Assembly: GCF_003334305.1 (NCBI RefSeq)
Contig: NZ_QOWS01000001.1
Origin: Escherichia coli
Lineage (GTDB): Bacteria > Pseudomonadota > Gammaproteobacteria > Enterobacterales > Enterobacteriaceae
DNA: 64,000 bases
Direction: 5' to 3' (one strand)
The notes under the pieces: model-generated
Database searches by the model: none
Told to the model about the DNA's origin: nothing
Seen by the model: only the letters and a program-made list of their open reading frames with translations
Shown: positions 1,122 to 56,775 of the stretch, piece after piece
Layout of the letters: each line of letters begins with the position of its first letter
Numbering within the stretch: position 1 is the stretch's first letter
Translations under genes and position numbers: made by a program

Positions 1122-1208
1122 AAAAAATAAGCCCGTGTAAGGGAGATTACACAGGCTAAGGAGGTGGTTCCTGGTACAGCTAGCATTTTATGGGTTATGT
1201 TTTTCAGC
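1122..1208 (-). ncRNA. cyaR: CyaR (RyeE) Hfq-dependent sRNA
   Basis: Reverse complement reads GCTGAAAAACATAACCCATAAAATGCTAGCTGTACCAGGAACCACCTCCTTAGCC...CACGGGCTTATTTTTT, matching the CyaR sequence including its terminator hairpin and U-tail. Confidence 0.8.
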
Positions 1209-1292
1209 GAAACGGATGATAACCTTAATAAATGCAGCTGTATGTGATCGGTTTCTAAGAATTTTCCATCCGGGAAAAATAATCGAAATTAA

Positions 1293-29128: not shown

Positions 29129-30712
29129 TCACACCTCGTACTCCATCTCGCCATCCTTACGCAGCGGTATAATCTGCACCTTCTGCACGCGATGGCTTTC
29201 TACCTGCAACGTTTTAAGCAAATAATCCCCCACCTGAACTTCTTCGCCAGGTTTTGGAATACGCTGCAAATACTCCATCAACAGCCCGGCAATGGTGTGA
29301 TATTCACGTTTTTCATCCAGCGGCAGCGGCACATATTGCACCAGATCTTCCAGCGGCATATGACCATTCGCCGTCCAGGAACCGTCCGCATTCTTCTGAA
29401 TATCATGGCGGGCGTCGATCTCTTCCACTTCGTTCGGTAAGTTACCGGCAATGGTTTCAGTGACGTCACTTAATGTCACAATCCCTTCCACCGAGCCAAA
29501 CTCATCCACCACAAAAGCAAAGTGTGTGCGGGCATTACGGAACTGCTCCAGGGCAGGTAACAACGGCAAGGTTTCCGGGAACACCAGTGGCTGGCGAATC
29601 AACACCCGCAGGTTGAGCGGTTCGCCACGCAGTGACTGTTGTAGCAGGTCGATAACGTGAACAACACCGAGCAAATCTTCTGCGTCATCACCGTCGGTAA
29701 CCACCAGCCGCGTATGCTGATTTCGCTCCAGCAACTGGCGGATTTCTTCTTCCGGCGCGTTGAGATCGATATGCTCAATATCGTGGCGCGACGTCATAAT
29801 GCTGCTGACGGTACGCTGGTTAAGATTAAGTACCCGCTCAATCATCCGCCGTTCCTGCGGATTAAAGATCTGCTGGTTACCATGATCCACCAGCATGGAC
29901 GCGGTTTCGGCGTCCAGTTCCGCATCTTCTTTTTGCCCGCTAAGCAGGCGCATTACCGCTTCGGTAGTCCGCTGGCGCAGCGTCTGGTTAGCGGAAAGAA
30001 AACGTCGCCGGTTAAAGATAGCCAACTGATTGAGCGCCTCGATCATCACCGAGAAGCCAATGGCGGCGTACAGGTAGCCTTTCGGAATGACGAAGCCGAA
30101 ACCTTCTGCCACCAGGCTAAAGCCAATCATCAACAGGAAGCTTAAGCAGAGAATAACGATGGTCGGGTGACTGTTAACAAATTGCGTTAACGGCTTGCTG
30201 GCCATCAGCATTAGGCTGATAGCGATAACGACGGCGGCCATCATGACCAGTAAATGGTCGACCATCCCGACGGCGGTAATCACCGAGTCGAGTGAGAAGA
30301 TGGCGTCCAGCACCACAATTTGCGTCACCACGCCCCAGAACTTCGCACCTTTGCGTTGTGTGGGATTATTGCTGTCTTTCCCTTCCAGCCGTTCGTTCAG
30401 CTCCATCGTGGCTTTGAACAACAGGAAGAAACCACCAAACAGCATGATTAAGTCGCGGGCGCTAAAGGTAAACGAGCGGAAGCTGAACAGCGGTTGAGTC
30501 AGGGTGACCAGCCAGGAGATTGACGCCAGCAGTAACAGGCGCATTAACATCGCCAGCAGCAGCCCGGTAACCCGTGCGCGGTCGCGCTGCTTCGGCGGTA
30601 GTTTTTCGGCGAGGATGGCAATAAAGACCAGGTTATCAATGCCGAGGACCAGTTCGATCACAATCAGCGTGATTAACCCGGCCCAGATAGACGGATCGGC
30701 AATCCATTCCAT
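29129..30712 (-). CDS. yegH: Inner membrane protein YegH (TerC-like membrane domain + CBS pair + CorC/HlyC transporter-associated domain)
   Basis: 527 aa from ATG at 30712 ([10 protein letters not shown]...); ORF-track start 30778 is an extension. Confidence 0.9.
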
Positions 30713-31153
30713 AGTAAGTACAAAACCTATTCGTTGTATGACAAATGTCACAATTCGATCATGGATAAATCGGGGCAAAAATGCAATGTTGCAGCACTAT
30801 TTATCTCATATTATTTGAGGGTAATAACCTCACATTATCCCTGAATTAAAAGGGGTAATAATAAAACATTATTTAAGAAATATCGCATGTGGAGACGCAA
30901 TATTAAATATTGTCAACCTAAAGAAACTCCTAAAAACCATATTGAATGACACTTAATATAATTCTTAAAAATAGCCAATTGCCGAATTGTTACCTTGCCT
31001 GCTATTCCGTTAGCTGTAACACTTCCTCCTGCATTATTGGAGAGCCAATATTCAATTACCATAATGTCACCTTATATTCGGAAGTTAATTTCCGTAATAA
31101 CCCTTTCTCATCAACGATTGTATGCAGAGAGGGTTTGAAAAATTAAGCTAAAT

Positions 31154-31192
31154 CAGTGTATTGGTAGCTAAAAAGCCAGGGGCGGTAGCGTG
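31154..31192 (+). promoter_or_regulatory. JUMPstart element with ops site (GGCGGTAGCGTG) in the wza 5' leader; RfaH-dependent antitermination signal
   Basis: CAGTGTATTGGTAGCTAAAAAGCCAGGGGCGGTAGCGTG seen at 31154-31192, about 180 bp upstream of wza. Confidence 0.75.
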
Positions 31193-31370
31193 TCTGGATG
31201 CCTGAAAGACCAGTCTGAATTATTCTGTCAATAGCCTGCGGATGAAATCAATTTTTTTAGGACTGATGCCAGTTAAATTTTTATTCAATTAACTGCAAGG
31301 TAAATGTGCATGGCGACATTGCTATTAATAGTGCACAGGATAATTACTCTGCCAAAGTGATAAATAAACA

Positions 31371-32510
31371 ATGATGAAATCCAAAATGAAATTGATGCCA
31401 TTATTGGTGTCAGTAACCTTGATAAGCGGTTGCACAGTACTTCCGGGCAGCAATATGTCGACGATGGGCAAAGACGTCATCAAACAGCAGGACGCTGATT
31501 TCGATCTCGACAAAATGGTGAATGTTTATCCGCTGACCCCGCGCCTGATTGACCAATTACGCCCACGCCCGAATGTAGCGCGCCCCAATATGACGCTGGA
31601 AAGCGAGATCGCGAATTACCAGTATCGCGTCGGGCCGGGGGACGTTCTTAATGTCACCGTCTGGGATCACCCGGAACTCACCACGCCAGCCGGTCAGTAC
31701 CGCAGCTCCAGCGACACCGGCAACTGGGTACAGCCTGACGGCACTATGTTTTACCCGTATATCGGCAAGGTTCACGTAGTTGGGAAAACGCTCGCTGAAA
31801 TCCGCAGTGATATTACCGGGCGCTTAGCGACGTACATCGCTGACCCGCAGGTGGACGTTAATATCGCCGCCTTCCGCTCACAAAAGGCCTATATCTCCGG
31901 ACAGGTGAATAAATCCGGCCAACAGGCGATCACCAACGTGCCACTGACCATTCTCGACGCCATCAACGCCGCAGGTGGCCTGACCGACACCGCTGACTGG
32001 CGCAACGTGGTGTTAACACACAATGGTCGTGAAGAACGCATTTCTTTGCAGGCGCTGATGCAAAATGGCGACCTCAATCAGAACCGACTGCTTTACCCCG
32101 GCGATATTCTCTATGTGCCGCGTAATGATGATCTGAAAGTATTTGTGATGGGTGAAGTGAAGAAACAGAGCACCCTGAAAATGGACTTTAGCGGCATGAC
32201 CCTGACTGAAGCTCTGGGCAATGCCGAAGGTATCGACATGACCACCTCCAACGCCAGCGGCATCTTTGTCATTCGTCCGCTGAAAGGCGAGGGTGGGCGT
32301 AACGGCAAGATTGCCAATATCTACCAGCTGGATATGTCCGATGCGACGTCGCTGGTGATGGCGACAGAATTCCGCCTGCAACCTTATGACGTGGTGTATG
32401 TCACCACCGCCCCGGTTTCCCGCTGGAACCGTCTGATCAATCAGTTGCTGCCAACTATTAGCGGTGTCCGTTACATGACGGATACAGCCAGCGACATTCA
32501 TAACTGGTAA
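31371..32510 (+). CDS. wza: Outer membrane polysaccharide export lipoprotein Wza
   Basis: 379 aa; lipobox LISGC; matches Wza. Confidence 0.95.
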
Positions 32511-45718: not shown

Positions 45719-45807
45719 ATGAATGCCGAACCGCGATGTAAATAACGACAAAAACAAAATTGGCCGCTTCGGTCAGGGCCAACTATTGCCTGAAAAAGGG
45801 TAACGAC

Positions 45808-56736: not shown

Positions 56737-56775
56737 CAGTGCTCTGGTAGCTGTAAAGCCAGGGGCGGTAGCTTG
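56737..56775 (+). promoter_or_regulatory. JUMPstart element with ops-like site (GGCGGTAGCTTG) ahead of the O-antigen cluster
   Basis: CAGTGCTCTGGTAGCTGTAAAGCCAGGGGCGGTAGCTTG; near-identical to the wza JUMPstart at 31154. Confidence 0.7.

Follow-up and report, generated by a model that had tools for sequence, protein, structure and literature searches.

Transcription of the colanic-acid operon of E. coli is a textbook arrangement in which Rcs signalling, H-NS silencing and RfaH anti-termination meet. The product is the main stress-induced slime of E. coli and matters for phage resistance, biofilm behaviour, desiccation survival and production strains. Published statements place an RcsAB box in the cps promoter, report that RcsA-RcsB activates wza, describe, in secondary sources, RcsA-RcsB as binding there and as needed for induction, name a single RcsAB-dependent promoter upstream of wza, and attribute transcription of the wza operon to a JUMPstart-RfaH mechanism. 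The RcsAB consensus is TaAGaatatTCctA, with T1, A3, G4, T10 and C11 as its most conserved positions and its right half attributed to RcsB; boxes bound by the RcsB homodimer read TN(G/A)GAN4TC(T/C)NA. The E. coli K-12 cps (wza) promoter region itself was reportedly described by Stout in 1996 (J Bacteriol 178:4273) and by Wehland and Bernhard in 2000 (J Biol Chem 275:7013).

ChIP data that bear on silencing and RfaH recruitment at this operon come from another strain. The wza-wcaM operon is a cryptic RfaH target in E. coli CFT073 (Hustmyer et al., mBio 2022, PMC9765446). H-NS covers the wza promoter in wild-type CFT073, and ChIP signal for sigma70 and RfaH appears at the wza ops only in a delta-hns delta-stpA strain. 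The same data set lists ops GGCGGTAGCGTG 190 nt upstream of wza, with an RfaH signal of "Y" and the start site given as NA.

The DNA analysed here, a 64,000-nt window of an E. coli genome, carries this region in its familiar form. Locus, length, JUMPstart, ops and flanking genes are those of the E. coli K-12 cps (wza) promoter region. We are highly confident that the spacer is the already-known bidirectional control region that serves the colanic-acid (cps/wca) operon on one side and yegH on the other, in overall identity and in mechanism. RcsAB-activated, H-NS-silenced, RfaH-dependent control of wza is known, and confirming it adds little; a conserved, uncharacterised leader is possibly the exception. 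The spacer and its flanking genes are:

29129 to 30712, minus strand: yegH, encoding a TerC-family inner-membrane protein, divergent from wza, with its start codon ending at 30712
30713 to 31370: the divergent yegH/wza spacer, 658 bp between the yegH start codon and the wza ATG
31371 to 32510, plus strand: wza, with its ATG at 31371, first gene of the colanic-acid operon wza-wzb-wzc-wcaA...wcaM

The spacer is long, AT-rich and nearly universal in the species. A first-pass annotation had called the divergent region unusually long and very AT-rich, and both descriptions hold with the bounds given above. At 658 bp it is the longest of about 24 intergenic gaps in the surrounding annotated 50 kb, followed by galF-rfbB at 372 bp. 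Its GC content is 0.348, compared with 0.503 for the whole window and 0.533 in both the yegH and the wza coding sequences, and drops to 0.23–0.28 over 30808–30972, the upstream activating part. The O-antigen cluster at about 56.3–63 kb, where GC goes down to 0.25, is the sole part of the window richer in AT. Among 5426 complete E. coli genomes, 4819 carry at least 80% of the spacer, in most cases with an identity of 95% or higher, and about 11% have no intact copy.

Close relatives differ little. In an E. coli genome whose spacer is 100% identical, the annotated gene order is asmA, yegH, wza, wzb, wzc. MG1655 has an equal 658-bp gap at 2137244–2137901 with no annotated feature inside, about 98% identical to the window's, with zero indels and about 11 point differences. 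One of these lies 3 nt upstream of the predicted -35 element (C in the window, T in MG1655); none falls in the RcsAB-like boxes B and C, the extended -10, JUMPstart or the conserved leader blocks described below. A disrupted locus occurs in the urinary isolate E. coli KE51 (NZ_CP141080.1), where an IS1 lies 71 bp from the yegH start and a deletion runs from the cps promoter through wcaL, removing wza to wcaL. Published evolved strains in which IS1 had inserted into the cps promoter showed a stronger colanic-acid-dependent phenotype.

Comparison across genera divides the spacer into discrete blocks. We searched for orthologues with a pattern of ops, a gap of 20–50 nt and then CAATAGCCTGCGG, which recovered 18 loci from Escherichia, Salmonella, Citrobacter, Pseudocitrobacter, Superficieibacter, Kluyvera and another Enterobacteriaceae isolate. 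Because the loci were picked by an exact leader match, leader conservation near the anchor is inflated and the taxa are biased towards conserved leaders. Of these loci, 16 reach far enough to tell, and in every one yegH and wza lie side by side and are transcribed divergently. Spacer length (650–681 bp) and GC (0.34–0.38) are conserved in six genera or isolates, namely Escherichia, Salmonella, Pseudocitrobacter, Superficieibacter, Kluyvera and one further Enterobacteriaceae isolate, which we refer to as the six-genus set. Ten of the orthologous loci were aligned, identities were taken for the five non-Escherichia taxa against E. coli, and 4-fold degenerate wza sites served as the neutral benchmark. 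Conservation along the spacer alternates sharply:

30713 to 30807: yegH-proximal block, identity 0.61
30808 to 30908: variable segment 1, identity 0.38
30909 to 30972: upstream activating segment, identity 0.73
30991 to 31035: core promoter block, identity 0.77
31036 to 31153: variable segment 2, identity 0.40
31154 to 31192: JUMPstart with the forced ops positions left out, identity 0.81
31193 to 31370, plus strand: the 178-nt conserved leader 3' of ops, identity 0.70 with forced positions left out
31331 to 31370: final 40 nt before the wza ATG, identity 0.89
wza coding sequence, all positions: identity 0.80
4-fold degenerate wza sites, the neutral benchmark: identity 0.50

Variable segments 1 and 2 drift at or below the neutral rate. 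Footprinting of this kind locates promoter elements where motif matching fails in AT-rich DNA.

The best-defined elements of the spacer lie in its wza-proximal half. The first-pass annotation had placed a 39-bp JUMPstart and a canonical ops there, and an Rfam match together with a perfect 12-nt ops bears this out:

31154 to 31192, plus strand: JUMPstart, 39 bp, a full-length match to Rfam RF01707 at 57.3 bits (E=5e-12), above the gathering score of 35
31181 to 31192, plus strand: ops GGCGGTAGCGTG, 12 nt, the site where polymerase pauses and RfaH loads, carried by the non-template strand of the leader

Both the 8-nt core GGCGGTAG and the 12-nt form GGCGGTAGnnTG are present in this ops, and the untranslated leader that bears it on its non-template strand precedes a long operon, wza to wcaM. 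On the wza strand it begins 190 nt before the wza ATG (31371 minus 31181). Chance would give 0.05 occurrences of the pattern GGCGGTAGNNTG in the 64 kb; there are two, each within a JUMPstart element. Function of this ops is supported by the RfaH ChIP signal reported at an identical sequence and distance in CFT073.

The second of these elements lies at 56737–56775 on the plus strand (56.7 bits), in the galF-rfbB gap before the O-antigen cluster, and carries the ops variant GGCGGTAGCTTG. Several other RNA elements are found in the window. The Rfam algC RNA motif RF02929 scores 77 bits at 45754–45803 on the plus strand, inside the cps operon. Mapping to NZ_CP025892.1 places it about 31–80 nt inside the annotated 5' end of cpsG (manB), so that either the cpsG start codon is misannotated or motif and coding sequence overlap. 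Three tandem SIB antitoxin RNAs of the ibs/sib type I toxin-antitoxin system (15329–16134, minus strand) and the CyaR small RNA (1125–1210, minus strand) are ordinary and K-12-like.

Between ops and wza lies the one part of the spacer with potential novelty, a conserved leader with no described function. Its most constrained stretches are:

31222 to 31243, plus strand: invariant sub-block ATTCTGTCAATAGCCTGCGGAT, of which 13 nt were forced by the search pattern
31252 to 31258, plus strand: an invariant run of seven T in the alignment
31336 to 31366, plus strand: invariant 31-nt sub-block CAGGATAATTACTCTGCCAAAGTGATAAATA, reaching toward the wza start codon

These blocks raise the possibility that the leader at 31193–31370 holds a distinct, undescribed cis-regulatory element on top of RcsAB and RfaH control. 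Such an element could be a structured RNA or could bind a protein or small RNA, and would control wza translation or mRNA survival. We regard this as a tentative idea, and a rather unlikely one. In its favour, identity in the final 40 nt (0.89) exceeds that of the wza coding sequence (0.80) and far exceeds the neutral value (0.50), and the leader as a whole stands at 0.70 outside forced positions, in a set of taxa whose choice favours conserved leaders. More than 90 nt separate the invariant 31-nt block from the forced anchor. The window's second JUMPstart resembles this one over the 39 bp of the element and no further, which makes the leader blocks specific to wza. A literature search found no described function for the wza leader, and nothing specific on CsrA, Hfq or small RNAs acting on it turned up in the literature searched.

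On a folded RNA the evidence points neither way. One form that the element could take is a long-range helix between AUUAUUCUGU (31219–31228) and ACAGGAUAAU (31334–31343). RNAalifold returns such a helix of 10–12 bp, with one flanking pair changed on both sides. However, nearly all of the proposed pairs are invariant, which leaves no real covariation (covariation term +0.12), and the minimum free energy of the E. coli leader is no better than that of shuffles (z=+0.87). Rfam gives JUMPstart alone at E values up to 1, and a generic scan found no terminator-like site. Conservation could equally reflect DNA-level sites, the needs of RfaH-dependent pausing, or initiation at a start codon that lacks a Shine-Dalgarno sequence. 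The sequence before the wza ATG indeed contains no canonical Shine-Dalgarno, and RfaH is said (Burmann et al. 2012) to help recruit ribosomes to genes of this kind. A 16-codon open frame in the E. coli leader (31242–31292) was considered as a leader peptide and set aside: the alignments show it ending after two codons in Salmonella and disrupted by a frameshift in Kluyvera.

The leader, above all 31336–31366 and the surroundings of 31222–31243, is on this reading more constrained than the wza coding sequence and may act after initiation, gating wza translation or coupling wza to RfaH. We put this forward as speculative, and somewhat doubtful.

The AT-rich DNA upstream is most likely a silenced control region. 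The first-pass annotation had read the AT-rich tract as a target of nucleoid-associated silencing; in CFT073, H-NS does lie over the promoter, and signal at ops appears only when hns and stpA are both deleted. Composition fits such a locus (the window's GC is 0.50, that of the spacer 0.348 overall and 0.23–0.28 over 30808–30972). Scanning for the H-NS nucleation motif TCGATAAATT gave two 8/10 matches in the region and was uninformative. H-NS also affects colanic acid indirectly, via rcsA, so direct silencing may account for only part of the overall effect.

Much of this DNA might instead be non-functional filler or the remnant of a horizontal acquisition, in which case its length and composition would mean nothing for regulation once the promoter and JUMPstart are set aside. 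About a third of the spacer (30808–30908 and 31036–31153) does sit at or below the neutral level, with identities of 0.38–0.40, and the spacer is a target for IS1, both in KE51 and in the published cps-promoter insertion. Yet a length of 650–681 bp and a GC of 0.34–0.38 have been kept in six genera despite variable segments that are saturated with substitutions. Spacing and AT-richness thus seem to be maintained in their own right. In vivo the region is occupied by H-NS, and yegH-wza synteny is kept in all of the orthologues recovered. We consider the filler reading improbable.

Upstream of wza, conservation picks out two candidate RcsAB operators. Three RcsAB-like boxes and the invariant blocks that hold two of them can be listed, with positions relative to the predicted transcription start:

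30874 to 30887, plus strand: box A TAAGAAATATCGCA, 9/14 consensus matches and 5/5 key positions, at about -149.5
30911 to 30935, plus strand: invariant block TGTCAAy-aTaAAgAAAnTCCTAAAA of the six-genus alignment, which holds box B
30919 to 30932, plus strand: box B TAAAGAAACTCCTA, 10/14 matches and 4/5 key positions, at about -104.5
30952 to 30970, plus strand: invariant block TTAATaTtAtTCTTAAAA of the six-genus alignment, which holds box C
30954 to 30967, plus strand: box C TAATATAATTCTTA, 10/14 matches on either strand and 4/5 key positions, at about -69.5

Consensus matching by itself says little here. The first-pass annotation had proposed scanning for an RcsAB box, and the scan did turn up box-like sites, but the two matches of at least 10/14 compare with 1.24 in dinucleotide shuffles (P=0.34), and similar matches are scattered over the window. 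We therefore rejected a consensus match as stand-alone evidence, since it is not enriched over shuffles. Boxes B and C stand out because they are conserved and fit the literature: they are invariant or nearly so in six genera and form the only invariant islands in the upstream AT-rich DNA. Box C lies 35 bp downstream of box B in the same orientation, each ends in an invariant TCYTAAAA, and the right halves of box B (TCCTA) and box C fit the RcsB half-site TC(T/C)NA. In its Kluyvera form, TAATATTATTCTTA, box C agrees at 12 of 14 positions with the published RcsAB box of K. pneumoniae galF, TAAGATTATTCTCA. Box A is conserved in Escherichia and Salmonella only. With box C it forms an inverted repeat, the sole pair of note in an internal-repeat search.

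Box B is presumably the published wza RcsAB box; looking for the candidate boxes in the full texts searched gave no relevant match. If box C is used as well, colanic-acid induction would run through two tandem RcsAB operators 35 bp apart, not the single box usually cited. What has been observed are the sequence features, how far they are conserved, and the published ChIP signals; which box or boxes are used, the exact start site and a role of RfaH in translation are inferred.

Downstream of box C, a conserved block contains a weak candidate promoter. Two sites compete for the assignment:

30995 to 31023, plus strand: predicted cps core promoter, -35 TTGCCT (30995–31000), a 17-nt spacer and an extended -10 TG-t-AACACT (31015–31023)
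31038 to 31065, plus strand: alternative promoter-like site TGGAGA-16-CATAAT, the sole match of a generic promoter scan (1 against 3.6 in shuffles)

The columns CTTGCC...GCTG.AACA.TTC of the first are invariant in six genera, and mean identity is 0.77 against 0.50 for neutral sites. This conserved candidate, TTGCCT-17-(TGt)AACACT, scores below the threshold of the generic scan; weak -35 and -10 hexamers are expected of an activator-dependent promoter. The generic-scan match sits in variable segment 2 and has no conservation outside Escherichia, so it is probably not the conserved promoter. From the position of the conserved hexamers, wza transcription would start near 31030 +/- 3, which is about 2137584 in MG1655, where each coordinate equals 2168614 minus that of the window. 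The transcript would have a leader of about 341 nt, in which ops sits around +152. The start-site coordinate and those of the boxes are on balance probable. The expectation that an RcsAB-dependent cps promoter lies here is supported by statements in the literature and by two conserved boxes and a promoter-like block in six genera.

A direct repeat, TGGAGACGCAATATTAAAT at 30890–30908 and TGGAGAGCCAATATTCAAT at 31038–31056, flanks the activating and promoter blocks. The copies are 84% identical and 148 bp apart, and the second supplies the non-conserved promoter-like hexamer. The repeat is probably due to chance in AT-rich DNA. Other internal repeats in the spacer are just short two-copy matches, typical of such DNA.

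The same stretch carries an annotated open frame:

30913 to 31062, minus strand: 49-aa "hypothetical protein" WP_162829205.1 annotated by PGAP, spanning boxes B and C and the core promoter

That this is a real small protein gene, with coding the cause of the conservation there, is extremely improbable: although RefSeq annotates it in most genomes sampled and it is intact in several Escherichia lineages, the frame is open in Escherichia only, being interrupted or absent in the orthologous regions of Salmonella, Kluyvera, Superficieibacter and Pseudocitrobacter faecalis, is cut to 39 aa in one E. coli strain, contains indels that are not multiples of three, is missing from the MG1655 annotation, and has as its conserved columns short operator and promoter-motif blocks with no codon pattern. 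We rejected it as a gene. The PGAP entry inside the cps promoter is spurious and should be ignored.

At the other end of the spacer, the 95 bp adjoining yegH would hold that gene's own promoter. Two features lie there:

30758 to 30786, minus strand: putative yegH promoter, -35 TTGCAT (30786 to 30781), a 17-nt spacer and -10 CATGAT (30763 to 30758)
30737 to 30753, strand-neutral: perfect palindrome TGACA-AA-TGTCA, reading TGTGACATTTGTCATA on the reverse strand and resembling a CRP site

The putative promoter matches at 8/12 positions, under the threshold of the generic scan, and falls within TGATCATGGATAA and ATGCAA, two blocks that do not vary in the six-genus alignment. It would place the yegH start near 30751 with a leader of about 39 nt. 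The palindrome overlaps this putative start; it is kept in Escherichia, Salmonella, Pseudocitrobacter and Superficieibacter and has been lost through a 9-nt deletion in Kluyvera.

We combine these elements into one model. About 70 and 105 bp ahead of a weak sigma70 promoter, two RcsAB-type operators that share one orientation would let that promoter fire only when phosphorylated RcsB and RcsA are bound. H-NS and StpA would coat the surrounding DNA (GC 23–31%) and keep initiation off in ordinary growth. Transcription would begin at about 31030 and produce the leader of about 341 nt. The ops within JUMPstart would be exposed on the non-template strand at +152, where RNA polymerase would pause and load RfaH. 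RfaH would then exclude NusG and Rho and carry polymerase through the operon of about 24 kb, and probably also aid ribosome recruitment to wza, which lacks a Shine-Dalgarno.

Leaders of the same design precede other envelope and polysaccharide operons. The rfb/O-antigen cluster (56737–56775 in this window), waaQ, hlyCABD and kps likewise have a 39-bp element and a 12-nt ops on the non-template strand of an untranslated leader before a long operon. The wza leader differs from the O-antigen copy in its layout. The predicted wza leader, about 341 nt in all, would have about 150 nt ahead of ops, and the 178 nt behind ops are conserved. The O-antigen copy carries the variant ops and shares with wza only the 39-bp element. 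About 11 nt past its ops, three-frame translation finds an ATG-initiated open frame, at a point with no annotated gene start.

The upstream half of the spacer has its own counterparts. The rcsA promoter of E. coli likewise has two RcsAB boxes upstream of a weak promoter in AT-rich, H-NS-bound DNA. Its boxes lie about 170 bp upstream of the start, its AT-rich DNA is curved, and it has no ops or RfaH step; at wza the boxes are predicted at about -70 and -105, and control extends to elongation. The cps locus of Klebsiella pneumoniae uses the same two modules, and its galF box closely resembles box C. In Klebsiella, however, the RcsAB box (P1, galF) and JUMPstart (P2, wzi) occupy separate promoter regions, whereas the colanic-acid locus combines both.
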